DNA from: Candidatus Bathyarchaeota archaeon
GTDB lineage: Archaea > Thermoproteota > Bathyarchaeia > Bathyarchaeales > Bathycorpusculaceae
Direction: 5' to 3'
NCBI GenBank assembly: GCA_963717465.1
Contig: OY970340.1
Span: 2,368,001-2,432,000, forward strand
Length of the DNA stretch: 64,000 bases
Shown here: piece by piece, positions 1,073 through 37,459 of the stretch
Position numbering within the stretch: position 1 is the stretch's first letter
Layout: every line of letters begins with the position of its first letter
The notes under the pieces: model-generated
Seen by the model: the letters and a program-made list of their open reading frames with translations, nothing else
Databases searched by the model: none
What the model was told of the DNA's origin: nothing
Position numbers and translations under genes: made by a program

Positions 1073-2176
1073 ATGTGCTGTGCAATTAAACGCAATGTCG
1101 CTTCGGATTCACTCTTAAGAAACAAGAAGATTTTTTGGATTTTAATAATTATCATTTCGATTATTTCTTTCAGCCTCAGATACGCCAACATTAATGCTCC
1201 TCAATATGTAGATGAAACTACATACATCATCCTAGCCCAATCTCTCTCCACAGGACACCTTGCCACTCAGTCCAGCTTTACGAATGTGTATAACTCTACA
1301 GGATTGGCAACAATTAGTTTGAATAACGGCCTCATAATCGTTGAGCCATGGTTTGATCATCCACCATTTTTCTCCATCTTAGATATTCCATTTCTAATTT
1401 TTGGCGCTCCAAGGCTTCTGCCAATTATCCTAGGCGCTTTGTCGACATTTTTAATAATGTACTTATTGAGAAATAACGCAGTTGAATCTATTTTAGCTGG
1501 TTTTATATTTGCAGTTTTTCCCTTTGCAATTCAACTTAATTCGATGATGTTTATCGACAACGGTTCAACATTTTTCTTTTTGCTAACTATCGCTTTAACA
1601 TCAATGTATGAAAAAAGGAAAATGGAAAGAATTCTTATTCTTGCAGGAATCTCTGCCGGTATCTCGTTCTTGAACAAAGAATTAGGCGTCTTCGCCATTC
1701 TGTACTTTCTATTTTACCTCATAGCTACGCGCAGTTTCAAGAAAAATTATAAATGGCTAATTCTAGCAATCGGAGTAGCATCCTCTTGGTTCATAATGGG
1801 GCTATCAATAAACAGCCAACTATTTTTAACAATCTTTACAACTCAATTTGGAAGAACCAGTTTGAGCTACAACCTTCAACACATATTCTACACAGCATTA
1901 AGCAACTTTAGTTACGATTACAATAATTTTTACATTGGCAGTACAAGCTTACTTCTCGTTCTATCATGGATTGCCGTTGTCGGTTTTGTCTTCATTAAAG
2001 GACATAAATTGATAAAAATTGGACTTTTAAGCTTCGTGATCACCATGGCAATTATAAGATATGCTTGGTTCTATACATGGATCGCAATGTACCCATTCTT
2101 CGCTATAGCAATTGCCTCTTGCATCTGCGAAATACTTAACTATACAAAACACGTTTGGCGACACTTTAACGAATAG
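1073..2176 (+). CDS. membrane glycosyltransferase, GT-C/family 39 (PMT-like)
   Basis: Multiple TM segments, 'YVDE..Y' and 'WFDHPPFF' motifs typical of GT-C enzymes. Confidence 0.75.
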   Translation: MCCAIKRNVASDSLLRNKKIFWILIIIISIISFSLRYANINAPQYVDETTYIILAQSLSTGHLATQSSFTNVYNSTGLATISLNNGLIIVEPWFDHPPFFSILDIPFLIFGAPRLLPIILGALSTFLIMYLLRNNAVESILAGFIFAVFPFAIQLNSMMFIDNGSTFFFLLTIALTSMYEKRKMERILILAGISAGISFLNKELGVFAILYFLFYLIATRSFKKNYKWLILAIGVASSWFIMGLSINSQLFLTIFTTQFGRTSLSYNLQHIFYTALSNFSYDYNNFYIGSTSLLLVLSWIAVVGFVFIKGHKLIKIGLLSFVITMAIIRYAWFYTWIAMYPFFAIAIASCICEILNYTKHVWRHFNE

Positions 2177-2910
2177 TCTGATTAACCCACTATGCTAAGT
2201 CTAGCAAAAACACGTGATAATATTAACAAGCAATAAGATAATGGTTGGAAGATGACTTTTTCAAGTCACCCACAAAATATAATTTCTTAATGCTTCAAAA
2301 CGATTCCTGAAGCATTTTTATGTTTGACTTGCAGCTTTCTCCTTTTCGATTCTCTCTTTTTCGATTTTTTCGTAACAAGTTCCACATACAAAACGCTCGC
2401 GATTTTTAATTATAATACGTTGAAGCATAACATCTTCTGCTTTACATATTGGGCATCTCCCCATACCAAATCACCTACGAATATTTCCTTGCCTTTTGAT
2501 ATAAGACTTTTTGAATAAAAAATCATAATCTTCTTGGAAAAGTTGATATTAGGTAAACGCTACTTCAGCAAAAATATATTGAACTACAATCAAATAAAAC
2601 AGTGGGGAGAAGAAATGGTAAATCTATCGCTCACGAACAGATTACTGATGCCATAATGAATTATTTCTGGCAAATCGACATGAAGAATACCTATGGAATT
2701 TTGGCTTGTTTTTATAATGATTCTGCGCTTGATTTTCTTGATAATGCTGTTGAAGGATTGACTGCAATCAGAGAATTCTACAAAACTACTTGCTGCGACA
2801 TTGATGTGTACTAGAAGATGTTGATTTTGATACAGCCTTATAATAAAAAAAGGGTAAAAGAAATTAATTGTAGTTCAGCTACTTACCTGCTGCTTGTCGT
2901 TTGTTGTGTT

Positions 2911-3255
2911 TTAGAATTGCCACGAACTTGGGGCTTCAATGTTTAATTTATCGGTAACAAATTTTTTAGCGCCAGGAATGTGCAATTCTAAAGGTGCAGT
3001 AGTTGTTATTGTCGTCTCAGTAACGCCGTTGATTGTACGTATGTTTTCTTTAGTAAAACGAGTTGCCGCATCGTCGTCATCGGCTTCAAGCCATAGAGAG
3101 TAATTCCACGGTCCCCCAGTTTTGAATCCACATTTGATTTGAGCATCCTTAGCAACAGGCTTTTCAAAACACTTATTTAATGAGTTGCAGAACAAATCTG
3201 GTTTATCTTCGGACATTTTAACCATGACAATGTATAATTTCTTGGTTTTTTGCAT
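2911..3255 (-). CDS. Lrp/AsnC ligand-binding-domain-like protein
   Basis: 'TGGPWNYSLWLEA...IRTINGVTETTIT' resembles the AsnC/RAM domain; no HTH. Confidence 0.5.
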   Translation of the reverse strand: MQKTKKLYIVMVKMSEDKPDLFCNSLNKCFEKPVAKDAQIKCGFKTGGPWNYSLWLEADDDDAATRFTKENIRTINGVTETTITTTAPLELHIPGAKKFVTDKLNIEAPSSWQF

Positions 3256-3517
3256 TTTTTCTCACCTTTAAAATTAGCTTGTGGCAATACCACATAAACA
3301 TTTGTTGTTGTCATTATACAACAACAGAGGGCTAAATAGTAGAAGAACCTGGTTGGTGTATGTAATATTAAAAATTGTTGATCTTTCTTTGAACAGAGCG
3401 TGTTTCTATAAGATAAGACATGGTTTACTCTCGTTATTATTAATATAACCGGCAAAATTACCCATTGATCTAAAATCCACGCGTGCATTCAAGCAAGTAA
3501 TTCGGGAATTTCAACAA

Positions 3518-3757
3518 TTATGGTTTTGGGACATAAATGATAAATCCATTTTCTTCTTTTATGCTTAGATTATAAGCTTGCATAATTTGCTGCATTTTTT
3601 CCCAGGATAATTCATCAAACGTTCCCTTAATGCACAGTTTATACCCGATAGTTCTATCTCCATCAACCGACTTGCTTAATGCAAAAGAATCAATCCATTT
3701 TCCAGTAAAACTAGTCAAAATTTCTTGCATAACAATAACAGCTTCATTCCTCTCCAA
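3518..3757 (-). CDS. small hypothetical protein, paralogue of 39475-39735
   Basis: Shared pattern R.(E/D)AV..(M/L).EIL...GY...K...L..KE..G..I between the two ORFs. Confidence 0.6.
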   Translation of the reverse strand: MERNEAVIVMQEILTSFTGKWIDSFALSKSVDGDRTIGYKLCIKGTFDELSWEKMQQIMQAYNLSIKEENGFIIYVPKP

Positions 3758-3878
3758 AAGAAAACTCCTCCAAGTTATCGGTCGCTTAATAAGTATAATA
3801 TAAGAATTTTATTCTTCATATATATACGATTTTGTGACTGTCTGATGACAACTACAGATTAAAAAAAAGAGCCCTGCT

Positions 3879-6398
3879 TTACGGCACAACTTTATGGCGG
3901 GGGATGTGGACGATGAATTTTGTGCCTTTGCCTGTTTCGCTTTCAAAAGACACTGTTCCGCCTAAGGCTTCAGTCATGCGTTTGACTACTGCTAAACCGA
4001 ACCCTTGACCTCTTGATTTAGTTGTAAACAGTGGAGTGAACAATTTGCTCTTTGCTTCTTCAGGAATTCCACTGCCAGAGTCAGTTACCGTAATTGCAAC
4101 GTTCTCTTTATCCATGCTAACGTTTATAGTGATTTTTCCACCGTTTGGCATGGCTTGAACCGAATTTGAAATCAAGTTGCTGATTATCCTTCTAAACAAA
4201 TCAGGATCTATCACAATCTTGCTTGCTTCTTTCTGAACTTTCGTTTCAACTTTAATCGTAGAAGGAAAATCATGCTTAGAAAGTATCAAATTAATTAGCT
4301 CTTCAATTTGAGTTTCTTTTAGGATAGGTCTGATAGGTTTCGCGTAATCTTGAAGGTCCTGCACAATTTTGTTAACGTAGTCAATGGAGTGCTCAATTGC
4401 TTTTACGCTTTCCAGTATGCTTTCTTTTTGTTTGCAATCTTGTAGATCAACTAGTTCTGTCTCCACCAAGTACAAGTCACCTATTATCGACTGCAGTGGA
4501 TTGCGAATGTCATGCCCAACCATACCTGCCGTGGCACCGATAGCCGCTAATCGTTCAGCGTCTTTAAGTTGTTCAAGTCTTTGCATCGCAAGAGACTCCA
4601 TCTGACTAGCGTACTCTTCAAGCTGCACTGCATTTTCTTCAAGCTTCTTCTGGGTTTCCTCTAACTGTGAGGTACGTTGTTTTAATGTCTCTTCAGCTTT
4701 CTTACGTTCAGTAATATCCATTGAGTAAATTCGAATACAGCGGCTATTAGGAACAAGGAAGAATTGCTGGCTATACCATTGGTTACCGATTTTAACTTCT
4801 CGGCTAAACGTACTTGATGCTTTGCTCTCAAAAGCTTTTACGACATCTTGCCAGTTAGACAAGAGAGGATGCGCTATGCCTAAGCTGCCAAAATTATCGA
4901 AGGTTTTAGCTGCCGGATTAGCATAGGTAATATTGCCCTCAAAGTCCATTTCAAAAATTGGATTAGGATTGAGCATTGGAAATGAAGCTAGTCTGGCAAT
5001 TTCATCTTCAGCTTTCTTGCGCTCTGTAATATCCGTAAGAATTGATAAAAAGTGTTCTTCTCCTTTGAAAGTAATTGTTACCGTTGAAATCAACAGACGC
5101 CTATATTCTTCTCCCCTAGTCTTGTACGTCCATTCATTGGTTGCGATTTTGTGTTGACTTGCCTTACCAATTATCTCCGCTCTGACTTTTGGGTCTGTCA
5201 CTATTCCCAGCTCAGCGGCCGTGTGCCCAATAATCTCATGTTTTTTGAACCCAAATAGTTGCAAGTAAGCTTCGTTTGCGTCCACAAATATAGTATCGTT
5301 AACTCTTTGGATTAGCATAGGATGAGGATTTGAGTTAAATGCCTTGGAAAAGCGTTCTTCACTCTCTTTAAGTTCTTCTTCAGCTTTCTTGCGGTTTGTG
5401 ATATCATTAACAACATAGCTGAATGTTGGGTTACCGTCCTTTTGAGTCCCCAGATAGGTGACTGTTGCTGAAAGCCAAGAATCTTTGCCGAGTTGGCTGT
5501 CAATGTACTCAAAAGTAACCGGTTCCCGGCTGTTTTGGCTTTCTTTGTAATGCTTGAGCCAAACTTTAACTCTTTCAAGGGGCTCTCCAAGTTCTGAACC
5601 TAGTTTATCTTTTAAGTCCTCAGGCTCTAAACCGATATAGCTAGCTGTAGCCTTGTTATCCTTTAGATGTCTAATATCTGCATCGTTGATAACTTCGACA
5701 ATGCCCTGCATAACTCCTTGACTGTCAAAAAAGCTGCTCAGCAAAGCTTCACTATGACTGAGGTTTTTTTCAACCTCTCTACGACGTACGATATCTTCCA
5801 TTAAAACCCATTTTTGACCCTGCTTAACTAGCGTTCCGGCATGATTGCGGATGACATCAATTACATCTGTGCCAGAGCAGTTAGGCAGATAATAGGTACA
5901 AAGAGCAAGCATCTTGTGCTTGCCAATAACCGTGTTTATAGCTTTTTCGTAATCAACAAAATTTTTCCAGAGATTGCGCTCTACCCAGAAAGTGTTACCG
6001 GTAAGCCGTAAACCTTCAAAACCAATTTTCAAAGCATTCTCCTCTTTCTTAACCCAACCATTTAGCACTCTGTCAGAGTCAAATTTTCCATCTTGCAAGT
6101 ACCAATTGTCATAGGAGATTACTTCGAACTGGTCTTTTTGCAAGTATACATCTAAATTCGGTATAGCTTTGGCAAGTGCTTGTTTGGCTTCTTCAACCTC
6201 AAAAGGTGGAGAAGTAACCCACATACAGAACTCATTGCTATGAAGGCCTTCCGAAAAGTAAGGAACCAAAATGTCGAGTAAGTCTTGTTTAGATTCGTAA
6301 AACTGACACAGGTGCGTTCCCCACGGTATATCTCCGACAAGATAATTACCAAATTTGCGAGGTTTATTAGTAGTATTTGATGATGACTTCTTTGGCAT
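3879..6398 (-). CDS. MEDS-PAS sensor histidine kinase
   Basis: N-terminal MEDS (WGTHLCQFYE), PAS/PAC repeats ending DITERKKAE, H-box GHDIRNPL, HATPase N/G1/F/G2 boxes. Confidence 0.92.
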   Translation of the reverse strand: MPKKSSSNTTNKPRKFGNYLVGDIPWGTHLCQFYESKQDLLDILVPYFSEGLHSNEFCMWVTSPPFEVEEAKQALAKAIPNLDVYLQKDQFEVISYDNWYLQDGKFDSDRVLNGWVKKEENALKIGFEGLRLTGNTFWVERNLWKNFVDYEKAINTVIGKHKMLALCTYYLPNCSGTDVIDVIRNHAGTLVKQGQKWVLMEDIVRRREVEKNLSHSEALLSSFFDSQGVMQGIVEVINDADIRHLKDNKATASYIGLEPEDLKDKLGSELGEPLERVKVWLKHYKESQNSREPVTFEYIDSQLGKDSWLSATVTYLGTQKDGNPTFSYVVNDITNRKKAEEELKESEERFSKAFNSNPHPMLIQRVNDTIFVDANEAYLQLFGFKKHEIIGHTAAELGIVTDPKVRAEIIGKASQHKIATNEWTYKTRGEEYRRLLISTVTITFKGEEHFLSILTDITERKKAEDEIARLASFPMLNPNPIFEMDFEGNITYANPAAKTFDNFGSLGIAHPLLSNWQDVVKAFESKASSTFSREVKIGNQWYSQQFFLVPNSRCIRIYSMDITERKKAEETLKQRTSQLEETQKKLEENAVQLEEYASQMESLAMQRLEQLKDAERLAAIGATAGMVGHDIRNPLQSIIGDLYLVETELVDLQDCKQKESILESVKAIEHSIDYVNKIVQDLQDYAKPIRPILKETQIEELINLILSKHDFPSTIKVETKVQKEASKIVIDPDLFRRIISNLISNSVQAMPNGGKITINVSMDKENVAITVTDSGSGIPEEAKSKLFTPLFTTKSRGQGFGLAVVKRMTEALGGTVSFESETGKGTKFIVHIPRHKVVP

Positions 6399-8585: not shown

Positions 8586-10883
8586 TTATGGTCCGATCGG
8601 GCCGATGTTGGCTGAGTATACTTTTGCGAGTGCCGCTTTGAAACACCAAGCTCCAACTTCAGGGCTAAGCTGCTCCGCATCGTTCGGTATTGTAACGTCA
8701 ATGTTCCAGTCAGTCCATCCATGCAAGAATGGCTCCTCACCAGGCAACTCGGGACGCCACCAACCATGCTCAGGCGAAACAATCTTCGGATTAACGCCGA
8801 AATCGTACCGTACTTGTTGCATGCATCTTCCAACAGGAGTCTCAATGTAAACCCACTCGCCATCACCAATACCCATATTACGCGCCGTTAGTGGATGCAA
8901 CTTTACACGTGGAAAAGGCCGCAAATGACGCATCAAACTAATATGCCGCAATTCACCGTGATGAGCTTCCTGGAATCTTGCTCCACTGCACAAAATCAAC
9001 GGAAAGTCCTTAGCGATGTCAGGCGCACTGATCGGTGTCCAAGCACACTCCTGATAATACGGCAATGGATCATAATCGATCTGCTCCAGAATAGTTGAGT
9101 AGAAAGCAACTTTACCCTCAGGAGTACCAAAGCCTCTGACCTGTCCAGTCTCAGGATCAAGCTCCTCATACTTCTTGAACCTAGGTTCATACGGCGGAAC
9201 ACCCTTCCACTCCTCAATCACCTGTTTGCGCGTCCAACCAGCAGGCTCATAGAAAATGTCCTGAAACTCTTCTAGGGTTTTCCATCGCCAAACTTGATCA
9301 ATTTTTTCTTTGCCAAGCGTTCCAACTGCGAGGTCACGGTATATTAAGGCGTCATCTTTTAGATCCCACAAGCCAGGTATTTTCTCAGGCACTGCGCGAT
9401 CGCCAGCGATCTCAAACTCGATTTGACCTTGTCCTGAAACTGTCGCGTAGCCGGAATTTCTCTCAAATTGACTTGTTCCAGGTAATACGTAATCTGCGAT
9501 CATTGCTTCAGGCGTCATTTGAGCACATTCAATGTATACGAATAGTTCAAGCTTCTTCAAACCCTCATAAGCCTTCTTGATGTTTGGATAATTCCTCAAT
9601 GGACCGACTTCGCCAGAAATCATAGCTTTGATTGGATAGGGCTTCTCAGACACCATCGTGTCTATGAACGTTGGCCAGTTTGGACCTCTTGATCCAGAAG
9701 AGTGAGCACCACCCGTCCAGTATCCTTTAGAATCAGCTGCCTGATTAATCAACGGAGCAATCGTAAAGTTCAACGCTCTGTATTTATCGATTCCTACCTG
9801 CTTCATCATTTGTTCAACGTCAGCCTGTTGAACTATGTCATGGATTGCCATTGTTGCATTCATGAATTTCGGTTTTGCGTGTAGGTATTCGCCGCCTTCA
9901 ATATCGATGTTGCCGGTTAACGCGGGCATCATGTATTTTGCGCGAACGTTGCTTAAAGAGTTCCTGCCTGATGATTCAATCGCGTAGGCAAACGGGAAAG
10001 TGCATGGACTGTTCTTCGCTATGAACCTTGCTGCTTCCCTGATCTTCTCAGCTGGAATCCAAGTTATCTCTGCAGCCTTCTCAGGCGTATACTGCTTAGC
10101 CCGTTCCTTGAGCTTGTCAAATCCAAAAGTCCATTTCTCCACAAAATCATGATCATACAGGTCCTCTTCAATGAGCACGTTTATCATTGCCATAAACAAT
10201 GCAGCATCAGTCCCAGGTCTAATCGCCAACCATTTTTCAGAAAGCCTCGCAGTCTCGCTGAATCGCGGATCAATACAGAGCATTTTCGTGCCAGCCTCCA
10301 ATCCCGCAACGAAAGCAGGCCAAGAATAAGTCCAAGACTCACTCGGGTTCGTGCCTGCAACAAAGATACCTTTCGTCTTGCCAGGGATAATCATTGCATA
10401 CGTAATTCCCACGCCATAACCCAATCCTAGGGCTTGGTTCGTGGGTCCAGCTCATGTCTGAGCCGCAATCGAACCAAAATTCGGACTGCCAATCAAAACA
10501 AAATAACTAGCAAGCCCTAAACCTATGTTTGCGGCTCGACCTGTACCCCAGAAACCACAAGTAGTTTCAGCACCATACTTTGCAATGATTTCCTTCATCT
10601 TTTCGGATATTTCGCTTATTGCTTGTGCCCAGGATATTATTTGCCATTTGCCTTCGCCACGTTTGCCAATGCGCTTCATTGGGTACATTGGCCTGTCCTT
10701 GTGGTAAATGTATTCTAAGCTGTACTTCCACTTTTGACAGTACGGCCCGGGGTTAAACGGGCTTTCCCAGTCAGGCTCAACCTTAGTGATTTTTCCGTCT
10801 TCAACTGTCTCGAGCAATTGGCAGGATCCAGTACTGCAGAAACCGCATATGCATCTATGCATCTCTTTTTTAACTTCACTCAT
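8586..10883 (-). CDS. Mo/W-bisPGD oxidoreductase (acetylene-hydratase-like), 765 aa, with in-frame UGA at codon 144 (putative selenocysteine)
   Basis: ORFs 10452-10883 and 8586-10424 are in one frame, separated by TGA (10452-10454) plus 9 sense codons. N-terminal 4Fe-4S motif CGFCSTGSC..C, IDPRFSETA, RPGTDAAL, ADYVLP, C-terminal Molydop_binding domain. Confidence 0.85.
10408..10445 (-). promoter_or_regulatory. candidate bacterial-type SECIS hairpin immediately 3' of the in-frame UGA
   Basis: mRNA UGA-GCUGGA-CCCACG-AA-CCA-AGCCC-UAGGAUU-GGGUU-A-UGG-CGUGGG; three stacked helices, G-rich apical loop about 24 nt after the UGA. Confidence 0.6.
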
Positions 10884-11288
10884 TATTTAATCTCCTAACT
10901 CATTTATCTCCTAATTCTTGTTTGCTTCTTCAGCACCGAATTGGATGTAACAGAAAATTAATAAAACTTGCGGTTTTATTGTCGAAAATTTCAACAATTT
11001 GTCATTGTGTATTATTTCTAACTTACATTTTGCAACATTGTTACAAATATTAGTAATTTTTTAAAACATATTCTCAAACAGTTCCGTCATAATTTTGCGA
11101 TAAAGTTCAGGGTTAATCAGTTATCTAAGTCTGTTAGTCCGAGAAATCCCATTTAACATTGGCTCAATTATAACCTTAAGCAAATCGACTTAACCAATAA
11201 GCGAATGCAGAAGTTCATATGGCTGAACTTAACAAGTTTTATTTTTATCATTTGTGTTACTCTAGTCCTTAATTATATGCAATAATTT

Positions 11289-11810
11289 TTAAGGTTGAAA
11301 AAGTGACTCCAAATTTCGCAGTGAAAAGGGTTTTGGAAACTTTTTGCCCGTGTAAAACATGAAGCTGTTTGTTTCAACATTTGGACGAAACATTGATTCT
11401 TTTTGCATTCTGTCAGATAGTTCTAGATAACTGTTGTATGTTTTGTGTGCTGATACGACTACCCAAGTGGTTCCTGCGAAACTTTGCTCCATAAACACGC
11501 ACAGTATTTCGGGCTGTTTTTGAATCAATTCTTGAGCTTCTTTAGCTTGTGCTGGTGTAATCACATCACTCGTTTTTGCGAATGAAAATACAATAAAGTC
11601 TAAGCCCATTTTGTGGAAGTCAGGTATTACAGTGTATTCTTTTATGTAGCCCTCTTGCTCTAACTTCTTTTTTCGTCTGGACAACGTTGCATTGCTTATT
11701 CCTAAGGTCTTGGCAACAGCTCTATCACTTTTGCCGCCAAGCGACATTAGAGCAAACAAAGCCTTCAGGTTTTCCTGTGCTTTCTTGTCCGACGTGTCTT
11801 GCTTGCTCAT
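11289..11810 (-). CDS. Lrp/AsnC family transcriptional regulator
   Basis: HTH 'KSDRAVAKTLGISNATLSRRKKKLEQEGYIKEYTVIPDFHKMG'. Confidence 0.85.
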   Translation of the reverse strand: MSKQDTSDKKAQENLKALFALMSLGGKSDRAVAKTLGISNATLSRRKKKLEQEGYIKEYTVIPDFHKMGLDFIVFSFAKTSDVITPAQAKEAQELIQKQPEILCVFMEQSFAGTTWVVVSAHKTYNSYLELSDRMQKESMFRPNVETNSFMFYTGKKFPKPFSLRNLESLFQP

Positions 11811-12023: not shown

Positions 12024-14057
12024 TTGATAGAAGTGAGTGTAAAATTTAAATATCTTTTTTCTCCGTTGAAAATAGGGCCAGTGACAATTCCTAACAGAAT
12101 AATGTTGACTGGTCATAGTAATTTTCATGTAGATGAAACGGGAAACCCGACAGAATATTTGGCGTACTATCAGGCTGAAAGAGCAAAGGGCGGCTGTGGG
12201 CTAATATGCTATGGATTTATCTCAGTATATCCGAAGGAAATGGCGTGGGAGTATCCAAACTTCCGTTCTAGTTATACTACGCGTGCGCTTATACTTAATG
12301 CATATCCGCGTGGTCCTGACGAGGATTCTATTCCATCTCTGAAGAAAATTACTGATTTGTGTCACGATGCTGGCACTGGAACAAAGGTTTTTGCTCAGAT
12401 GGGTGCTAGTGGATGTTGGGAGGGTAGATGGGCTCCTTCCGAAACTGTAGACCCAGCAGATCCAAGAAAAACCAATATGGAAATGACTGAGGAGCAAATT
12501 GAAGCGGTGCTTGATGGTTTTGGAAAATCTGCCAAGAACATGTTAAAAGCAGGCTTTGATGGTATTGAAATTCATGATCATGGTGGCTTAGTACATCAGT
12601 TCATGTCTCCATTAACGAATAGGCGAAAAGACAAGTGGGGCGGAAGTTTAGATAATCGAATGAGATTCTTTTATGAAGCAATTAAAAGATGCAGAGAAAA
12701 CATGAGCAGTAATATGGCTTTGATTACTAGGCTTTGTGTTGATGAATTCGTTCCTAACGGAATAGGCGTGATGGATGGCGTGGAGATTGCAAAGCTACTG
12801 GAAGATAAGGTTGATGGTCTTGATATTGACATTGCAACTGAACCCGCATCCCTAAACGTTATAGTTGCTCCACTGTATATGGAGCCTGGCTACCAACTGT
12901 ATGGAGTTGAAGCGGTGAAAGAAGTCATAAAGAAGATACCTATAGGTTGTGTTGGTAGAATCAATGATGCAATGTTTGCTGAAAAAATCTTGGCTGAGGG
13001 CAAAGCTGACATTATAGGCATTTGCAGGGGACAGATTGCCGATCCTGAATTCTGTAACAAAGCTAAAGCAGGAAGACTAGACGATATAAGACCCTGCTTG
13101 TATGAGAATGAGGGTTGCATGAAAACAGGTTCTGTACAATGCACTGTAAACCCCACTAATGGATGCGAGAAGGCTTGGGGAATTGGAACAATTAAGTCTG
13201 CTGCAAAGAAAAAGAAGATTTTGGTTGCTGGTGCGGGTCCTGCAGGAATGGAATTTGCTAGAATTGCAGCTACCAGAGGGCACAATGTTACCATTTACGA
13301 AAAGTCAAATGATGTTGGAGGAGCCATTAATTTAGCTATGAAGTTGCCGGGAAGAATGGAATATGATGGTTTCAAGAGATGGCTAAAGATTCAGCTTGAC
13401 AAGTTGGGAGTTAAAATTGTCCTTAATAAGGAGGTTACGCCTGAACTTGTTAAGAGCGAAAATCCGGATGCTGTAGTAGTTGCTATTGGAGCAGACCCCA
13501 TGCGTGACGGCGACAACGCAGGCATGTATGCCGCAATTGATGGATGGAATCAGCCAAACGTTTGTGTAGGTGAAGACATACTTGAAGGCAAAGTTGACAT
13601 CAACAAACTTGGACCAAGAGTAATCATTTATGATCAAGTTGGCTATGATGAAGGCTTGGGAATTGCTGAAATGATTGCAGATGCTGGAAAACAAGTTGAT
13701 ATAAGGTCTGCAAGCTACTTTATCGGCGGTGCTGATATATTCCCGACTTTGCAGTTTGCACAATTGTTCCAGCGTCCAATGGAGAAAGGTGTGAAGCTTA
13801 GTCCAATGTCGTTGATGACTTACATTAGTGGGAACACAGTCGGGTTCATGAACAGTTTTACTCATGAAATGTACGAAGTCGAAGCTGACAATATTGTTCT
13901 CTGTGTAAGTAAAAAACCAAATTCTGAACTGTTCAAGAAGTTAATGGCGGCAGGATACAAACACAACGTAAACCTATACAAGATCGGCGATGCAAACGCT
14001 CCACACAATATCTGCGACGCCGTATACTACGGCCACGGCTTGGGAAGGGAAATCTAA
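12024..14057 (+). CDS. OYE/FadH-type NADH:flavin oxidoreductase (FMN barrel, 4Fe-4S, FAD domain)
   Basis: AGFDGIEIH, NRRKDKWGGSLDNRMRF, RPCLYENEGC..CTVNP, GAGPAG Rossmann motif. Confidence 0.9.
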   Translation: MIEVSVKFKYLFSPLKIGPVTIPNRIMLTGHSNFHVDETGNPTEYLAYYQAERAKGGCGLICYGFISVYPKEMAWEYPNFRSSYTTRALILNAYPRGPDEDSIPSLKKITDLCHDAGTGTKVFAQMGASGCWEGRWAPSETVDPADPRKTNMEMTEEQIEAVLDGFGKSAKNMLKAGFDGIEIHDHGGLVHQFMSPLTNRRKDKWGGSLDNRMRFFYEAIKRCRENMSSNMALITRLCVDEFVPNGIGVMDGVEIAKLLEDKVDGLDIDIATEPASLNVIVAPLYMEPGYQLYGVEAVKEVIKKIPIGCVGRINDAMFAEKILAEGKADIIGICRGQIADPEFCNKAKAGRLDDIRPCLYENEGCMKTGSVQCTVNPTNGCEKAWGIGTIKSAAKKKKILVAGAGPAGMEFARIAATRGHNVTIYEKSNDVGGAINLAMKLPGRMEYDGFKRWLKIQLDKLGVKIVLNKEVTPELVKSENPDAVVVAIGADPMRDGDNAGMYAAIDGWNQPNVCVGEDILEGKVDINKLGPRVIIYDQVGYDEGLGIAEMIADAGKQVDIRSASYFIGGADIFPTLQFAQLFQRPMEKGVKLSPMSLMTYISGNTVGFMNSFTHEMYEVEADNIVLCVSKKPNSELFKKLMAAGYKHNVNLYKIGDANAPHNICDAVYYGHGLGREI

Positions 14058-14240: not shown

Positions 14241-15746
14241 TTATTGTCCGTATTTTTTATTAAATTCGGCTAATGCTGCCTTACGTTGTTCGATAAACGT
14301 TTGAAGCTCTATTTTGGCCTTTTCTGTATTATCAACTATGTCATCAGCTTTAGTTTTAACAGCTAAATTAGAATCACCTGTTTTTTCAAGCGATCCTTTA
14401 ATTTCTTCAGCTTTCTTCTCAACCGCTGCTGCGGCATTACTCATATCACCCGATATCTTTGATGCTTCCTTAACATCGTTAACAACCGTTTCAGTCAAAT
14501 CTTCAACATTCTTTGCGATGACCGCCACATCTTTAGCGATTTTCTCCAGCTCCTGAGCAGCAGACGTTTGCTCCTCAACCGTAGCAGAAACCTCCTCAGA
14601 AGCAGAAGAACTCTCCTCAGCAATACTAGCAACCTCATTAATCGTCCTAACAACACTATTCAAAGCATTAAGACCACGATCAACACCCATCGTCAAGTGG
14701 CCTACTTTACTAGTCATCGTATCCATAATCTTAGCAATACCCTCAGCCTCCTTAATCGCATCCAAAACCACCTTCGTACCTTCAGCCGCATTAGTCTGAG
14801 ACTGAGTAGCAATAACATTAGTCTGCGTTCCTGCATCTTTAATTCCCTTCACAAGGCTGATGGCTGATCCTGCAGCTACTTTTGATTGACCCGCTAAACC
14901 TTTAACGGCATCAGCAACAACCGCAAAGCCTCTTCCAGCTTCTCCTGCTCTAGCCGCCTCAATCGCCGCGTTCAAAGCCAACATATTAGTCTGACCAGCA
15001 ATATCCGAGACGGAATTAGCCATCTGACCAACCTGCTCAACACTATTAACCATCGAAACCACCGCATCAGAAACCTTCGTTATATTAGTCTTAATATCCT
15101 CAATAGCATGCAAACCCTGCTGACCCTTCTCATTAGCATGCTTAGACTTCCTCAAAGCCTCATCAGTAACCAAAGAAGCCTCCTTAGCAATACCACCCGC
15201 CTCATCCATAACCCTCTTCAAAGCCTCAGTACTCTTAGCAGCCTCCTGAGAAAGCTCAGCCAACTTCTGTGCCCCAGTAGAAACCTGCTGCGATGCAGTG
15301 CTAACCTGCTGCATGCCTAAAGATATCAAATTAGACGTCTTCTCTACTTGTTTGCCCATATCCTCAACGCTAACACCAGCCTTGGCAACATCCTGTGCAC
15401 TTGTTAAAGCTTTTTGTGCATATTCACCAACTGTCTTTGCAGAATTTGCAAAATTAGAGACTAATGTTGAAGTTTCTATTGCAAGCTCCGCAGTGGCAAG
15501 AGTTGTTGAACCATGCTCCATTATATCTTCATCAATTCCCTTGGCAGAATTAATTGTATCTTCGCTATTTTTGATAATTTTTTCAATAACTTGAATTATC
15601 CCCTCAAACTCTTTCACATGATATTGTAAAATCTCTTCCTTCTCAGTTTGAAGCTTTTTGTTTTCTTGGACAAGCTGCTCTAACTGGCGTTCGAGCTCTG
15701 AAACTTTATTTTCCTGAGATTCAGCGGCCATTTTAATCAAATCCAA
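14241..15746 (-). CDS. soluble methyl-accepting chemotaxis-like protein (MCP1)
   Basis: Signalling hairpin [27 protein letters not shown]; no TM segment. Confidence 0.9.
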
Positions 15747-29011: not shown

Positions 29012-29194
29012 CCCTGTGCAAGCTGAATTTTTTACAAGAAACTCCTGGCTTTGCCATGATTGCCACGACTGCCAGGGTTAAAAATGACTCCGTCGATTAC
29101 AAACATTTGATGTTTTAATAAAAAATCCGCTAAAACCCGCTGAAGAACCCCTTAGAAACTTCAAAAACTACAGTGTCGAATACCATTAGGCAAG

Positions 29195-29268
29195 GGCCGA
29201 GGCAGGGATTTGAACCCTGGCAAAAGGCTCCACAGGCCTCTAGGCTACCAAGCTACCTCACCTCGGCC
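29195..29268 (-). tRNA. tRNA-His(GTG), with genomic G-1 and no encoded CCA
   Basis: (G)GCCGAGG..AGGT AGCTTGGT AGCCT A GAGGC CT GTG GA GCCTT TTGC CAGGG TTCAAAT CCCTG CCTCGGC C cloverleaf. Confidence 0.93.
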
Positions 29269-29347
29269 ACTTTTCCATGCCAAACAATGTCTTCGGCCGC
29301 TTTTCACTAACTTCAGCTTAAGCTTCTTAAGTTTCATAGCATCGCCT

Positions 29348-30667
29348 TTATTTTCTTTTACGGAAGATTTTTCCTCCATCATTGTACTCTCCTGTAATAT
29401 ATTCGAATCCTACCTCGATTAGTTTGCATGCGTCTTCAGCGGTAAATGCCAAGCGTGTTATGAATTGGTCATTCGGCAAGGTTTTAAAGAGGTTCTTTTC
29501 CAGTTGAACGTACAGCCTGGTGTTTTCTATGTTCTTATGGCCAAGGAATTCAGCAACAAGAAGGATATCCGGTGTGTAATGATAGAGCATTGTTCCTTTC
29601 CAATACCTAAAAGTATGCATGTGAATTTCTTTAAGGCGTGGATTCCCAAGTCTGAAAGCTAATTTATTTCTAGTCCTGCAGAGTTGATTCTTCAGCACAT
29701 TCAATGTCATTTTGCCAAATACTAGCTCACTATCTCGCGGCAAATTGCTAAGCATGTTAAGCAGTTTTCCGCTCAGATCGCTAAAGATTCTCGCGTTACT
29801 TCCTTTCTCGGGACAATTGCACATTATAACTCTTCTTTCTAAGTCGACGTCTTTCCAAGGAAGAGCAATAACTTCGCCTCTTCGCATTGCAGTTTCTTTA
29901 AGCAGTTGCAGGAAAGTGGCCAGTATATTCGGTGATCCAGCAATTAGATCGTCTATTTCTTGCTCGGTTGGAATAAATGGGTTTTTGCGGATAATCTCAT
30001 ATATCGGTGCGTCCCAAGATAGCCCAATGAACTTTAAGAAGTCAGTGTAAGCATTGATCACGTTTCTTTTTCGGCTGCCACTCCAAATTTTACCATTGAA
30101 AGCCGTTTCTATGTTGGACTGTTTTGCTATGACTTCTTTCACTGTTTCAGGATCTGCCAGGTTAGCGCCTCTAGAGATCAGCGTTCTTAAAACTGAGCTG
30201 CTTAAGCGTATGGTCGAGTCCTTGTAGCCTTGAAGCTTCATTTTAACTTCAAATTTTAATAGCATGCCTTTGACGTCTTTTTCATCACTCGCAACAGTCT
30301 TAAATTCTGCTGCGGTAGCCAAATTTTTCGTTGTCTCCTTTTTCTCCTCAACATCAACGCATATTTGGCGATTGCTTCTTTGCCCTGCAAACCTTAAATA
30401 ATTTTCCGAGAACCTACGCCCGCAATCAGTACATTTTAGAATACTTGTTTGTTTACCATCACCAAGCTTTCTTGAGCCATTATGCACTGTTCTGATACTG
30501 CCACATTCAGGACACTTTAAATCGGCTGTAACCTGAAGGTTTCGGGTAGGCTGAAGTTCATTTGGGAGCGCCTTAGCGTCGACTTGGAGGCGGCCAGAAT
30601 CAACGCTACTGCCAGAGCCTAAGAAGTGGTTAGCAAGCGCTTTTCCCTGAGCTTCAACCTCAACCAA
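29348..30667 (-). CDS. tyrosine recombinase/integrase with N-terminal zinc ribbon
   Basis: MRRGE (R), EKG (K), HTFRY (HxxR), LGH, TRLY (Y); CPEC..CTDC N-terminal to the core. Confidence 0.92.
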   Translation of the reverse strand: MVEVEAQGKALANHFLGSGSSVDSGRLQVDAKALPNELQPTRNLQVTADLKCPECGSIRTVHNGSRKLGDGKQTSILKCTDCGRRFSENYLRFAGQRSNRQICVDVEEKKETTKNLATAAEFKTVASDEKDVKGMLLKFEVKMKLQGYKDSTIRLSSSVLRTLISRGANLADPETVKEVIAKQSNIETAFNGKIWSGSRKRNVINAYTDFLKFIGLSWDAPIYEIIRKNPFIPTEQEIDDLIAGSPNILATFLQLLKETAMRRGEVIALPWKDVDLERRVIMCNCPEKGSNARIFSDLSGKLLNMLSNLPRDSELVFGKMTLNVLKNQLCRTRNKLAFRLGNPRLKEIHMHTFRYWKGTMLYHYTPDILLVAEFLGHKNIENTRLYVQLEKNLFKTLPNDQFITRLAFTAEDACKLIEVGFEYITGEYNDGGKIFRKRK

Positions 30668-30861
30668 ACTAACAAGAGCCTCCAGTACTGCTTAATGAAA
30701 AATCCTGTAACGCAACACTAAAATCAGGTATAGAATTTGCGACATTTTGCGGCAAATAAGGATTCTCAACAACCGCTGGAACTTGTAACGCAAACCTTAA
30801 TTCGTTAAGAAATTTTGCACTTTTTTGCACCAAAAGGGGCATTCTGCAAATTAGGTTATCG

Positions 30862-31113
30862 TTACAGTTCTGCATTCAGCCCCAGCTCCTTAAATTCTGC
30901 TGCCTTTTCAGCCCATTCTAGCCATTTTTTTGTTTTTCCTTTTCCGTTACAAATTCTTTCAGTGGCAAGGTGGTCTTTTCTGGACAAAACTGGACAAAAT
31001 CCGACAAAATCCAACACTGTTATTGCGTTACATGCAAAATTTGCTAATCTCGCATACCCCCGTTTTCCCTCAAAATACCACAAATTCTTAGGCTTACCGT
31101 TACAGCATTGCAT
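30862..31113 (-). CDS. hypothetical element protein
   Basis: Overlaps neighbouring ORFs in a co-oriented run. Confidence 0.4.
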   Translation of the reverse strand: MQCCNGKPKNLWYFEGKRGYARLANFACNAITVLDFVGFCPVLSRKDHLATERICNGKGKTKKWLEWAEKAAEFKELGLNAEL

Positions 31114-31513
31114 CGCGGCTTTCCTCCTCTGTGATGTTATGTGAGGTTTCCTGTTTCTCCTCTAATTCACTGTTTGATAGGTCAGGTAATGCAATTGGAA
31201 TCTGGTCCTCTAATGGCTCTGCTACTGGTTGCAGTTGGCGCCACATAGCATTTTCAACCGAGCCTATAGGCGGCCTTACAGTTTGGCGAGCTCGGAAGAA
31301 ATAAACCCGGTGTTTCGAAGAGCAGAATTTAGCGCGGCGAGTACGAGCTGGAAAATTAGTATGACAGAAAAGGCATGTTGCCATTAACGCATCCTTGTGT
31401 TTTGTGACGTTTTGTAACAATTCAGTCTGCAGAATCTCTTTTTGCGTTACATCGCTTGTCGAGGTTAGTTCATTTGAACTTACCCTTCCAGTTGAGACGC
31501 TGGGTGTAGTCAT
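31100..31513 (-). CDS. zinc-finger protein
   Basis: CLFC...RAKFCSSKHR motif; starts 1 nt after the helicase stop. Confidence 0.55.
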   Translation of the reverse strand: MTTPSVSTGRVSSNELTSTSDVTQKEILQTELLQNVTKHKDALMATCLFCHTNFPARTRRAKFCSSKHRVYFFRARQTVRPPIGSVENAMWRQLQPVAEPLEDQIPIALPDLSNSELEEKQETSHNITEEESRDAML

Positions 31514-31514
31514 T

Positions 31515-33479
31515 TCAAGCGGCCTCTTCTATTGGATCTTTATCTTCAAAACTTACACCTTCAGGATAAGCAGCCTTCCAAACTGCATTGTTGAATTTCT
31601 TTTTCAAATCATTAAAGCATGCGTCACATCGTCTAAGAGTATCCTTTTCTGGGGTTACTATTTCCTTAGTAATTGCAAGTTGACTGCAGGCTTCACATTT
31701 TTCCCCGTCCTTAATTTCCTTAACCCAAAAAGTCGGCTTTGTAGCGAGTGTATCGAGTGTATCAGGTGGGTATATACTCTTATTTTTAGATTCTTCACTA
31801 CTCTCTATTTTAGAGAGAGTAATAGGAGTCGCTACAGTCGCTACAGTCGCTACAGTCGCTACAGTCGCTACATCTAAGCTTTTCTGAGATGCCTCGCTTT
31901 TTTTAGCATAAGTAACATTCATGTAAACATGAATTCCTGCTTTTCCGTCGATTCTTTGTGTGGTTTGGATGACTTGAGGAATTTGCTTTGTTAATTCTTG
32001 AGTAAATTGTCCTTTGTTCCTTGGGGCTGCTATTCCGCTTTCAGCGCACCATAGGCCAACTTTTGACCATAGCTCTTTTTCTGGAATGAATTGGTTTTCT
32101 TCATAGCGTAAGTTTGATTCTATGAATGCTTGTGCTGGATTTGAGTTTTTAACGTATTTTTCTCGATTTTCTTCTATGTTCTCGTTCGCGCTAAAGCAAC
32201 CATTTTCTAATAATCGTTTTCTTCCTTCTAAAGCCCAATTAAGGAACCCTGACATTTCCTCTTCGTTTTCAGCCAGTTTATCAGCTAATCTTTTGATTTC
32301 ATTTACGCCTGGTATAAACTGCTTGTTGAAAGCGATTAGATTTTGCCTACGGTACCAGGCGTCAGTGTCATCGTCACTGGGTGGCAGCTGGTTGCAACTA
32401 TAGAATTGTTTAGGCAGGTCATCAGGGTTTGCTGTGAAAGGTTGACCATACTTATTCTGCATTGTCATGGGATCATCCCCTGACATCATTTTTGCGTTGC
32501 CAGTTGCAGAGATTTTTGTTTGTGGAATATCTCGACCTAAATTGACTAGTTTTCTGTAGCAGGTTGCTCTCTCGTATTTGTCATTGCATAATGCTTGAAG
32601 TGTAACATTTGATACGTTTTCGGGTCCTACGAGATAGGTTATTAACGTTAAAACTTGGCCTTTTCCATTGCCGCCTCCTCCAATAAAAATTGTTATTTTA
32701 TGAAACAACATTCCACGGATGAATATGTTTCCTATCGCTTCCTGGAGTAACGGAAGTTGTTTCTCTCCTACGATTTCAGTGAAGGCTTTAAGAATTTGAG
32801 GGCATTTAGCATTAGGGTTAAATTTATGGGGTATTTTGATTGTAGTATATTCGTTCGGTGTTGGATTTATCAGAATGTTTTTCTCTAAATGCAAAAAACC
32901 ATTTTTAACGCCTACGACAGCGTTGCTTGGTTTTATTTCTTCTAAAGTTATGCTTTTCAAGCAATGAAGCGTATTTTCATACAAAGCCTTAGTGTTGCGA
33001 TCACCTATGATTTTTGGCAGTAATTCCTGTAAATAAGTATCACCATCATTGCGCCAAATTCTTCTTTCGGCATCATACCTGCTTAATTTCCCTGTATCTC
33101 GATCAGTTTTGAAAAGATAATTAACGCTGATATCATTAGCGATTTCTTGTGCCCTTAAGGGGAGCTCTTTAATGTCTTCATTTGAAGTTACAGGCATTTG
33201 AATGTAAGTTTTTGGATTAGGATTATATTTTTGTTTTAAAGGTTCGTTTATTTCTTCTTTACATTCTGGACATGCCCAAAGGTTAGGTTGTCCATTATCA
33301 GTATATCCTATAATTCGTAAAAGCTTGCCTTCTCTTGGGCATACATCAAACTCAAAATGCTCTGCCTCTTCTTCATGAAGACGATTAAGCGCTTCTTCAT
33401 GTTCAGGATTAAATTCTTTTGGCAGTCCCGTGGGGATATCGGAAACAATTGGGTTTGGTTGCGGTTGCTCTGTCATCAC
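31515..33479 (-). CDS. phage/plasmid D5/P4-family SF3 helicase (replication protein)
   Basis: D5_N-like region (VGVKNGFLHL), Walker A GGGGNGKG, motif C FYSCNQLP, AWYRR; N- and C-terminal CxxC pairs. Confidence 0.85.
   Translation of the reverse strand: MMTEQPQPNPIVSDIPTGLPKEFNPEHEEALNRLHEEEAEHFEFDVCPREGKLLRIIGYTDNGQPNLWACPECKEEINEPLKQKYNPNPKTYIQMPVTSNEDIKELPLRAQEIANDISVNYLFKTDRDTGKLSRYDAERRIWRNDGDTYLQELLPKIIGDRNTKALYENTLHCLKSITLEEIKPSNAVVGVKNGFLHLEKNILINPTPNEYTTIKIPHKFNPNAKCPQILKAFTEIVGEKQLPLLQEAIGNIFIRGMLFHKITIFIGGGGNGKGQVLTLITYLVGPENVSNVTLQALCNDKYERATCYRKLVNLGRDIPQTKISATGNAKMMSGDDPMTMQNKYGQPFTANPDDLPKQFYSCNQLPPSDDDTDAWYRRQNLIAFNKQFIPGVNEIKRLADKLAENEEEMSGFLNWALEGRKRLLENGCFSANENIEENREKYVKNSNPAQAFIESNLRYEENQFIPEKELWSKVGLWCAESGIAAPRNKGQFTQELTKQIPQVIQTTQRIDGKAGIHVYMNVTYAKKSEASQKSLDVATVATVATVATVATPITLSKIESSEESKNKSIYPPDTLDTLATKPTFWVKEIKDGEKCEACSQLAITKEIVTPEKDTLRRCDACFNDLKKKFNNAVWKAAYPEGVSFEDKDPIEEAA
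31740..31872. repeat. five 9-bp tandem repeats (AGTCGCTAC) plus three degenerate inverted copies; candidate origin
   Basis: 31827-31871 perfect x5; 31740-31766 TGTAGCGAG/TGTATCGAG/TGTATCAGG; AT-rich spacer with palindrome 31800-31820. Confidence 0.85.
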
Positions 33480-33481
33480 TT

Positions 33482-33976
33482 TTACGCTCCTGGGTCAAAC
33501 GCATTTACTTGCTGCAAAATCGGAGAAATTGTTTCAGAGGAGTAATTCAGAAATGTATAGTATTCTTTCGTGTCAGTGTTAGCGAAGACCCGCGAGTTAC
33601 TCAATGGTTCTCCTAGCTGCATGCGAATAAAAGCTGCAAGTCTAGCACATTCATCGAGATTTTTAGTTGTTATTTTTATTGTTGAAATTTCTTGGGTCAG
33701 GCCTTTTTGGCCGTCAGGTAAAATTCCATTTTTTCTATCTAATATTTTGTCTTTATTCATTCGTGTTCGTTTGCCTTTCCCTGCACGCGCAACGGGAACA
33801 ATATAACGCTCAAATACAGTAGGCGAACGATCAAACGCTTTATTTTCAGCTTTTTCGCCACTTAAGCTTTTTGTCTTATTCGGTACATCATTGCAATAAT
33901 GCGAGGCAGAAAAAATGGAGTTAATGCACTCCTCAAGCTTCATTTCTTCAGTGAATTTTGTTAAAGTTGATTCCAC
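33482..33976 (-). CDS. hypothetical element protein upstream of the helicase
   Basis: GAGGCGG RBS-like sequence; ends 2 nt before the helicase start. Confidence 0.6.
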   Translation of the reverse strand: MESTLTKFTEEMKLEECINSIFSASHYCNDVPNKTKSLSGEKAENKAFDRSPTVFERYIVPVARAGKGKRTRMNKDKILDRKNGILPDGQKGLTQEISTIKITTKNLDECARLAAFIRMQLGEPLSNSRVFANTDTKEYYTFLNYSSETISPILQQVNAFDPGA

Positions 33977-34004
33977 TTTTTAGCCGCCTCTATATTTCTT
34001 CATA

Positions 34005-36608: not shown

Positions 36609-37000
36609 TCAGGCACCACGCTGCGATAAACGTCTCGCATTTGTTTCTGTTGTTGTCTTTCCTGAGCTTGATTCTGCAAATACTGCTGATACTTTTCCCA
36701 TTCTGCAAAAGCAACCGTGATTAAAGGCATTAAAATTGGTGCAATGATAGGCGCTAGCTCTGGCGCTAATTCTTTTATTGCTTCATGACTAAGAAAATGC
36801 GTCATTGCTTCTGGACTGCGAACAGCACGCGCTCCACGCACCACAGTTCTAGGGCTAACTCCAAAACCTGAAGGTTCCCCGCCTTCACCGCTTTCTTGAC
36901 TACCCCAATAAGCATTATACTGGCTAGGATTCCACTCTTCACTTTCACCGCCAGCTCCTTCACCGGCACCAGTTTCTGAACCGCCAAACGACGTAGCCAT
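36605..37000 (-). CDS. hypothetical protein with a hydrophobic helix and Gly/Glu-rich N-terminus
   Basis: Stop/start overlap with the 867-aa gene. Confidence 0.6.
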   Translation of the reverse strand: MATSFGGSETGAGEGAGGESEEWNPSQYNAYWGSQESGEGGEPSGFGVSPRTVVRGARAVRSPEAMTHFLSHEAIKELAPELAPIIAPILMPLITVAFAEWEKYQQYLQNQAQERQQQKQMRDVYRSVVPE

Positions 37001-37286
37001 GCCTAGTGCCGCCTTCCTGCTTACTCCAATAAGCGTTGTATTCGCCTAACTGCTCAGCTTCTTCATCCGCTTCCAGACTGCAGCCGCAATGGTTGTGAAC
37101 GTTTGCTGCGTAAGAATCAGGGTCTTCTTGCTCTGCGTTTGGGAAAGTAGCCGGAATCGCGCTTTCATTAAACGGCTTATTATCGTACCCGATGCATTGT
37201 TCGCAGTGGTTACAATTCGTGCCTAAATGAAAAGTGAATGGGCGGTCTTGCTTCTGCAAATCCTGATTATTGTCGTTTTCGGTCAT
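36960..37286 (-). CDS. Cys/His-rich protein with a MuF-like CxxC...HxxCxC pattern
   Basis: CNHCEQC...VHNHCGCSL; GGAG RBS. Confidence 0.4.
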   Translation of the reverse strand: MTENDNNQDLQKQDRPFTFHLGTNCNHCEQCIGYDNKPFNESAIPATFPNAEQEDPDSYAANVHNHCGCSLEADEEAEQLGEYNAYWSKQEGGTRHGYVVWRFRNWCR

Positions 37287-37303
37287 CTCCAGTCAAAGCA
37301 CCC

Positions 37304-37459
37304 TTATTTTTTGCAATTCTTTCTACAGCCATTCACAAGGCATCCAAAAGTAGGCCCGTGGCAGTTGGGGCATTCTTCTTGAGATTTTTGAGCCTTAACT
37401 GCCTTAGTTAACTCATTGCAAACAGGAACCCAAGCTCCCGTTCCTTTATTATTTAACAT
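37304..37459 (-). CDS. 51-aa Cys-rich protein (not in the ORF track)
   Basis: MLNNKGTGAWVPVCNELTKAVKAQKSQEECPNCHGPTFGCLVNGCRKNCKK; GGAGG upstream. Confidence 0.5.
   Translation of the reverse strand: MLNNKGTGAWVPVCNELTKAVKAQKSQEECPNCHGPTFGCLVNGCRKNCKK

Follow-up and report, generated by a model that had tools for sequence, protein, structure and literature searches.

A gene family for probable selenocysteine-ligated enzymes of the acetylene hydratase clade, with an in-gene hairpin after the UGA codon, in a Bathyarchaeia genome

A minus-strand gene of 765 codons, crossed in frame by one UGA, lies in a window of 64,000 nucleotides (the whole stretch of DNA that was analysed; contig OY970340.1, positions 2,368,001 to 2,432,000) from a Candidatus Bathyarchaeota archaeon and encodes a predicted molybdenum- or tungsten-dependent (Mo/W) enzyme of the dimethyl sulfoxide (DMSO) reductase superfamily (Table 1). 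The original prediction, made from the letters of the DNA, had placed open reading frames (ORFs) of 143 and 612 aa in one frame with no second lesion, read codon 144 between them as selenocysteine (Sec) and described the product as an acetylene hydratase (AH)-like enzyme. Translation of the frame agrees, the TGA at codon 144 being its single internal stop. Three Pfam domains, PF04879, PF00384 and PF01568 (4Fe-4S, molybdopterin oxidoreductase and dinucleotide-binding, respectively), scored above cut-off in the read-through protein, and no NCBIfam equivalog cut-off was reached by it. The likeness to AH holds in both sequence and fold, since AH (2e7z) is the best solved relative by sequence (E 3.9e-108) and the top Foldseek match of an AlphaFold (AF2) model with a mean predicted local distance difference test score (pLDDT) of 91 (template modelling (TM) score 0.88/0.93, root-mean-square deviation 2.6, 32% identity). 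The explanation that we consider very probable overall is that this is an intact selenoenzyme gene with a local hairpin signal, encoding a probable dehydroxylase.

Codon 144 aligns with Cys141 of AH and, in FdhA (9vap), with the Cys that serves as ligand, and the alignment of 110 full-length homologues showed a ligand-type column, with Cys in 106 and Asp in four. The gene is one of 11 copies in this genome, ~42-94% identical and all with TGA at the ligand column; eight of the copies are intact, the present gene being 43-93% identical to the other seven, and three are frameshifted elsewhere in the gene. Fifteen close matches to the N-terminal half were found, six of them in this genome and nine on other contigs. 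These nine, which come from other assemblies, all stop directly ahead of the ligand column, with the identity of the stop codon not visible in the records. Likewise, six C-terminal fragments (~600 aa, other contigs) begin past the ligand column, and in an unrooted FastTree phylogeny of 82 rows four of these six each have a single paralogue of this genome as partner. The rows of the tree were the eight intact paralogues but not the three frameshifted ones, these six fragments, the AH of the genome, 17 named loci and some of the sequences P0012-P0121. Because the same-column TGA recurs in 11 paralogues and nine of nine outside fragments end there, UGA144 is not a matter of chance. Together with the Cys column and a complete set of Sec machinery (see below), the UGA-bearing paralogues support the assignment of codon 144 to Sec, which in place of the usual Cys is almost certain, as far as alignment can tell, to be the protein ligand of the Mo/W-bis(pyranopterin guanine dinucleotide) (bisPGD) centre.

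The Sec enzyme family appears to be lineage-restricted, since close orthologues were found neither in 400 genomes of the class (best match 46% identity) nor, with a DNA pattern, in 119 genomes of the same genus. Searches among 60 relatives, in a genome contig collection (best at most 41% in the listed segments) and in metagenome contigs also returned no close orthologue, in collections that may lack records very near this genome. No TGA occupied the ligand column in 159 homologous loci (143 Cys, 16 misaligned), nearly all of them bacterial or metagenomic, and no UGA-bearing molybdopterin enzyme with PF00384 was present in 12 other SepSecS-positive genomes. A TGA in one further homologue (genome G224) was rejected as a Sec codon, as it falls in a conserved Trp column in a genome without a SepSecS match, and was taken as a nonsense change. 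Several stop-free AH-like paralogues each are carried by some Sec-negative genomes of the same order (G054, G280, G354 and G356), suggesting repeated expansions of the clade. A 137-codon C-terminal remnant of the family lies at G000:C1:1076144-1079178 (G000 denotes this genome) next to a ClpB-like gene that is broken up into several ORFs, and the two reflect assembly indel errors or decay.

A search of the genome, which is one contig of 3.05 Mb and 88% complete by markers, identified two tRNA-Sec genes with anticodon UCA (71.8 and 61.8 bits, both above the Rfam cut-off), SepSecS (E 6e-120), a SelD gene with its own in-frame TGA preceding a conserved Cys-Lys, and two fusions of PSTK to aSelB (732 and 730 aa) that are 54% identical to each other. 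The PSTK halves score 151 and 134, below the TIGR03574 cut-off of 290.5, with E values of 4e-44 and 7e-39. Both aSelB halves have aSelB_III (archaeal domain III) and a beta-barrel-type end, and no match to the SelB winged-helix Pfam was listed for either. The SelA route was rejected, as no SelA scored above cut-off in the genome. A fused hdrA-mvhD gene carries UGA at both known Sec sites, bringing the Sec codons of the genome to at least 14 (11 AH-like, two HdrA-MvhD and one SelD). Motif scans for FwdB/Fdh, VhuU, HesB and Prx selenoproteins gave no credible match. The second tRNA-Sec adjoins the second fusion (G000:C1:2827363-2829725, minus strand), whose GTPase motifs are degenerate and whose G1 loop is altered.

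The Bathyarchaeia-like host that had been proposed for the gene finds support: the small-subunit rRNA of the genome is archaeal, and of the relatives that carry a name and share 69-70% identity with the fusion, three are Ca. Bathyarchaeota/Bathyarchaeia and one is labelled Nanoarchaeia. SepSecS was present in only 13 of 401 genomes of the class, so the Sec trait is patchy. HdrA of four distant Sec-positive genomes had no TGA, and SelD in 10 Sec-positive relatives has a TGA in five and no stop in five, Sec and Cys forms occurring within one genus. Sec use by the host stands, with a correction to the original prediction's view that archaeal Sec is documented mainly in Methanococcales, Methanopyrus and Asgard archaea: the published record already includes Sec machinery in Bathyarchaeota with a PSTK-aSelB fusion (PMC8762117; PMC9499178); Sec use here is therefore less surprising than had been implied. 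The same fusion, SepSecS and tRNA-Sec make up the Bathyarchaeota system of Mukai et al. (PMC8762117); this genome has two fusions, two tRNA-Sec genes and at least 14 Sec codons. The more unusual parts, which go beyond the original prediction, are the expansion to 11 copies and an in-frame hairpin six bases past the UGA.

The segment following UGA144 folds into this hairpin with -20.9 kcal/mol (z -2.92 for a 61-nt segment; z -1.79 for +1..+60). The stem starts at +7 in 10 of the 11 paralogues; in the most divergent copy it starts at +8, and both arms pair there in the shifted register. Synonymous identity among the seven closer intact paralogues is the highest of the gene in codons 146-160 (0.77, compared with a mean of 0.57 and a standard deviation of 0.075), where the minor codons CCC (Pro), ACG (Thr) and GTG (Val), each of ~15% usage, are fixed. 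Across ten aligned copies, 90.7% of the cells are paired, compared with 23-48% for slid partners.

Hairpins at the same distance accompany other Sec codons. Among G000 and its Sec-positive relatives, which are kin from one family and not independent, all seven distinct Sec-HdrA sites have a +7 stem (mean z -4.95), as do none of seven Cys-HdrA sites (z +0.26), two of which encode a peptide nearly identical to that of Sec-HdrA. Similarly, a stem is present at seven of seven Sec-MvhD sites (mean -22.1 kcal/mol over +7..+48) and at none of 11 Cys-MvhD sites (mean -9.75 kcal/mol). This association across genes is stronger evidence than covariation within the family. When TGA-ended coding frames of at least 120 codons were scanned, 12 of 625 had the hairpin past the stop, each of the 12 being a Sec candidate. 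A further 962 TGAs are followed by coding sequence, and three of these had it: another paralogue, a candidate that is MtaA-like and a false match. No hairpin was found in the genome's Cys-coded true AH, and the Sec-SelD of G051, from outside the family of this genome, has a 9-bp basal stem from +7.

The MtaA-like candidate is a 412-codon frame at G000:C1:2822987-2824225 (minus strand) with two in-frame TGAs, and belongs to a corrinoid/RACo operon close to the second Sec cluster; it has no Pfam or NCBIfam match, its MtaA/URO-D label comes from likeness, and the +7 hairpin follows the second TGA. In addition, two adjoining, apparently secreted beta-rich proteins beside the Sec gene cluster of G152 (G152:C27 (L350), 2916-4163 and 1752-2798, minus strand), likewise outside the family of this genome, each have a UxxC motif containing an in-frame TGA, with a hairpin that begins at +8, making them candidate new selenoproteins.

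Based on these sequence comparisons, the hairpin probably contributes to Sec insertion, and we lean slightly toward its being the sole cis signal. Sec-tRNA(Sec) would be made by the archaeal route, through SerRS, the PSTK half of the fusion and SepSecS with selenophosphate from SelD, and would be delivered to UGA144 by the aSelB half. While the UGA occupied the A site, the stem would lie where mRNA enters the ribosome and would make it pause, favouring Sec-tRNA/aSelB over release factor; where the hairpin lies and how stable it is would probably matter more than the sequence of its loop. Its geometry equals that of the SEPN1 Sec redefinition element, with its 16-bp stem and 6-nt spacer (PMC3159437).

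Several observations weigh against a role for the hairpin as the general and only signal. Within the family the six basal pairs are invariant in 10 paralogues and only one of 14 pairs shows a change on both sides, so covariation is weak. The scan thresholds (-14 kcal/mol and +6..+8) were set after hairpins had been seen, the weakest match being -14.3. The +7 stem was not found in the Sec-SelD of G000, G260 or G272, that of G094 is weak, and the Sec-SelD of G152 resembles that of G051 but prefers another fold. The first UGA of the MtaA-like candidate has a strong stem only at +24, and loop sequences are unlike between gene families. As in a bacterial Sec insertion sequence (bSECIS), the hairpin lies in the coding sequence just past the UGA, and its 7-nt loop, 22 nt from the UGA with a minimum free energy of -19.9, falls within the bSECIS rule (loop of 3-9 nt, 16-37 nt from the UGA, minimum free energy of at most -7.5). 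Nevertheless, the loop begins with UA and has no G in its first two positions; that G is found in two of the 11 paralogues (loops starting GG) and in MvhD, but not in the other nine paralogues as folded, eight of which start UA. The bSECIS comparison also differs in that the spacer here is fixed at 6 nt and that the host SelB is archaeal and lacks a winged-helix match, so the bacterial mode of reading a SECIS is not available. In favour of a local signal, no euryarchaeal (GAA_A) or Asgard eukaryotic SECIS-like (AUGA_GA) pattern was found within 300 nt either side of the 14 Sec-candidate genes, in a scan that had no positive control (background 0.2-1.1% of 1317 ORFs).

These points bear on an alternative in which UGA144 is Sec but the hairpin is only accessory, like the eukaryotic redefinition element, and the real SECIS lies elsewhere (further along a long transcript, in the 5' untranslated region (UTR) or in an unmatched form), which we hold to be a serious minority possibility. 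The SEPN1 element has a spacer of 6 nt as well and, with its stem of ~14-16 bp similar to ours, is accessory to a 3'-UTR SECIS and SBP2 (PMC3159437), whereas no UTR SECIS was found here. The lack of a hairpin at this genome's SelD means that something else must serve SelD, aSelB lacks the bacterial winged-helix domain for reading a local hairpin, and ~35 nt directly past the hdrA-mvhD stop are common to five relatives (L062, L064, L065, L169 and L186). That shared 3' sequence is, however, missing from G000, G260 and G272; the 3' regions of the paralogues are mutually unlike (21-40% GC) with U-tracts within 26 nt; and no SECIS pattern surrounds the 14 genes, just as Rfam returned nothing in six loci. 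A U-tract was present at most 39 nt from the stop of each of the 14 Sec-candidate genes, and a scan for bacterial promoters and terminators was at chance level. Archaeal SECIS elements are placed mostly in the 3' UTR by the portion available of a 2026 review (PMC13188914), with no SECIS-binding partner known in archaea according to the accessible part of PMC11881835. The text and one supplement file of PMC8762117 do not mention SECIS, and the available parts of PMC5424206, PMC11881835 and PMC9622424 add no in-gene archaeal SECIS.

Returning to the local hairpin as the signal of an intact selenoenzyme gene, the identity of the enzyme can be narrowed by comparison with AH from Pelobacter acetylenicus. 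Shared with AH are the N-terminal 4Fe-4S motif, Lys51 as the equivalent of Lys48, and the ligand column, but here UGA/Sec replaces Cys141, the cluster motif has one extra residue, and Ser17 replaces the catalytic Asp13, confirming the Ser that had been noted after the second cluster Cys. This column is Ser in seven of the eight intact paralogues and Gly in the other. With the genome's own AH orthologue as proxy, Trp179, Trp293 and Trp472, which we take to form the active-site funnel of AH, are replaced by Thr185, Phe298 and Gln472. That orthologue (G000:C1:1817825-1820071, plus strand; E 2.8e-262 to 2e7z) lies 2 kb from one Sec paralogue and keeps Asp13, Cys141 and the three Trp residues. Since Asp13 and the three Trp are replaced, judged against this separate AH, the Sec enzyme is not an AH, and the proposal of a substrate other than acetylene holds. 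TGR and GxR-H-x-E-x-R motifs, not present in AH, occur in the Sec enzymes, in Eggerthellaceae AH-like enzymes and in most other homologues. The FastTree phylogeny places the Sec clade as sister to Cys proteins P0012 and P0013 of uncharacterised function (support 100), which, in an unrooted tree, suggests a Cys-to-Sec change before the expansion. The Sec enzyme resembles Sec FdhA/FdhF and FwdB in having Sec as predicted Mo/W ligand, and the FdhA ligand column aligns, but it belongs to another subfamily, has no U-H motif and scores 233 against the NCBIfam Fdh cut-off of 666; the available part of a superfamily survey lists Cys as the AH ligand and Sec as the Fdh/Fwd ligand (PMC10100899). Two MobA-like genes below cut-off and a PF12849 search that returned only PstS were obtained from queries on bis-molybdopterin guanine dinucleotide and on Mo versus W.

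By analogy with the catechol and corticoid dehydroxylases, the enzyme may reductively remove a hydroxyl from an organic, probably aromatic or lipophilic substrate, a tentative assignment to which we give a little under an even chance. Catechol dehydroxylases are the closest characterised relatives of AH (PMC7028382, accessible text), and those of Eggerthella and Gordonibacter (Dadh, Cadh, Hcdh, Dodh and Cldh) have expanded to many copies per genome as the family has here, with a related enzyme dehydroxylating corticoids (available parts of PMC7028382 and PMC11574389). A dehydroxylase would work beside corrinoid methyltransferases that demethylate the same compound class, the 11 paralogues covering different substrates; Bathyarchaeia have been reported, in the available part of PMC10989822, to demethylate lignin-derived aromatics. 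Counting against the assignment, the Sec clade stands apart in the FastTree phylogeny from AH and from the Eggerthellaceae homologues, which are themselves uncharacterised. Identity to the dehydroxylase group is ~30-34% with a separate clade, in an alignment that held these uncharacterised homologues and not the characterised enzymes. Furthermore, no ferredoxin or membrane-anchor subunit adjoins the gene, which differs from the dehydroxylases in having no adjoining beta and gamma subunits.

Oxygen-atom transfer is the default chemistry of the superfamily, and the enzyme could instead be a reductase for N-oxides or sulfoxides that releases methylated amines or sulfides for demethylation by neighbouring MttB/MtmB-like methyltransferases, which seems somewhat unlikely. 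Within 7 kb of the 11 paralogues, an MttB-like gene with a corrinoid gene occurs in four cases and an MtmB-like gene in three, as such a pathway would have it, but the protein is far closer to AH (E 4e-108, TM 0.88) than to DMSO and trimethylamine N-oxide (TMAO) reductases (E ~1e-26, TM ~0.70), enzymes in which Ser serves as a ligand. Asp is a further ligand of DMSO/TMAO reductases (PMC10100899). Less favoured still, and in our view unlikely, is a redox-neutral hydratase or dehydratase that resembles AH but takes a larger unsaturated organic compound as substrate; AH is the closest solved structure and the enzyme is a single subunit with no adjoining electron-transfer partner, but it lacks the catalytic Asp13 and the Trp ring, and a complete AH orthologue is encoded elsewhere in the genome. 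In viruses and flies, stem-loops 6-12 nt past a stop are known to stimulate readthrough (PMC3159437), so that a near-cognate tRNA might read UGA144 as Cys or Trp with the aid of the hairpin and no selenium; this is very improbable given the complete Sec machinery and the same hairpin at the canonical HdrA and MvhD Sec sites. A nonsense mutation or an assembly error, for which the split genes in the assembly and the three frameshifted paralogues speak, has almost no chance of being correct when 11 copies that have diverged, as well as other assemblies, are affected at the same codon, when the two halves are both conserved and when this gene has no second lesion.

If Sec is indeed the ligand, the AH-like enzymes would form a third Sec-ligated branch of the Mo/W-bisPGD superfamily, in addition to those of formate dehydrogenase and formylmethanofuran dehydrogenase. 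The members of this clade that have been studied use a Cys ligand and perform organic chemistry. On sequence grounds they are a probable new selenoprotein family, and the hairpin is probably a new placement of an archaeal Sec signal. In the sections available, the 2026 review counts 119 selenoprotein families in prokaryotes, has no Mo/W-bisPGD entries in its Table 1 other than FdhA and FwdB, names 11 archaeal families without mention of Bathyarchaeia or AH, and records archaeal Sec use only for Methanococcales, Methanopyrales and Asgard archaea (PMC13188914); the accessible part of an Asgard selenoproteome paper also mentions neither Bathyarchaeia nor AH (PMC11227280). A full-text literature search returned no report of the AH-like family as a selenoprotein or of the hairpin, with most subscription papers outside its reach, as were Figure 9B and the supplementary figures of PMC8762117, where bathyarchaeal selenoprotein genes may appear. 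We give an even chance to the broader proposal that Sec-using Bathyarchaeia have a third architecture, in which archaeal/eukaryotic-type tRNA, enzymes and aSelB act with a sequence-tolerant in-gene hairpin six bases past the UGA as the sole cis signal, and that one lineage has built on it an eleven-member Sec-ligated family of the AH clade whose members are probably organic dehydroxylases. A 38-nt in-gene hairpin would link bacterial in-gene signals to the eukaryotic redefinition element, with natural Sec/Cys gene pairs serving as controls, and would bear on the question of an archaeal SECIS-binding partner raised in the available text of PMC11881835. For genome annotation, the consequence is that pipelines cut all these UGA genes in two.

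Table 1. Coordinates of the features at the Sec enzyme locus, in positions of the window
Feature	Position	Strand	Remarks
Read-through gene, 765 aa	8586..10883	(-)	Catalytic subunit, cytoplasmic type, of a Mo/W-bisPGD enzyme (DMSO reductase superfamily, AH-like clade), from domains, AF2 and Foldseek
In-frame UGA, codon 144	10452..10454	(-)	Predicted Sec at the Mo/W ligand position, from alignments and 11 paralogues
In-frame RNA hairpin, +7 to +44 past the UGA	10408..10445	(-)	14 pairs with a GC-rich base of 6 bp; loop of 7 nt at 22 nt from the UGA; candidate for a local Sec signal
N-terminal [4Fe-4S] motif, Cys13/Cys16/Cys21/Cys49	10737..10847	(-)	Ser17 at the place of AH catalytic Asp13
Shine-Dalgarno-like AGGAGAT	10890..10896	(-)	6 nt upstream of the ATG, from sequence
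U-rich tracts, 21-45 nt past the TAA	8541..8565	(-)	AT-rich 3' region (22% GC) without SECIS-like pattern; likely archaeal terminator
Lrp/AsnC-like helix-turn-helix regulator	11289..11810	(-)	Directly upstream; similar genes flank most paralogues
Old yellow enzyme (OYE)/BaiCD-like FMN-FeS-FAD flavoenzyme	12024..14057	(+)	Divergent; similar genes beside three other paralogues

Within the same 7-kb limits, the neighbourhoods of the 11 paralogues include an Lrp-like regulator in nine cases, an OYE flavoenzyme in four and a KstD-like gene in one, several of the neighbour labels resting on likeness to tested copies. The OYE/BaiCD-like flavoenzyme is a possible electron-transfer or pathway partner, and a small neighbour protein scored 0.93 with SCP2-bearing clusters, which is a lead only. 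A recurring palindrome-like motif of a T-run and CAAAA lies ahead of a TATA-like box upstream of several paralogues (e.g., G000:C1:125100-125350) and is possibly the operator of the adjoining Lrp-like regulators.

Elsewhere in the window, an integrated element occupies 29194-47700, with an integrase (29348-30667) beside tRNA-His (29194-29267), a primase of the D5 type (31515-33479), repeats resembling att sites at 29251, 44276 and 45948, and many ORFs without PHROG matches. Three methyl-accepting chemotaxis proteins of ~500 aa that are alike are encoded at 14241-15746, 47811-49352 and 54907-56409.

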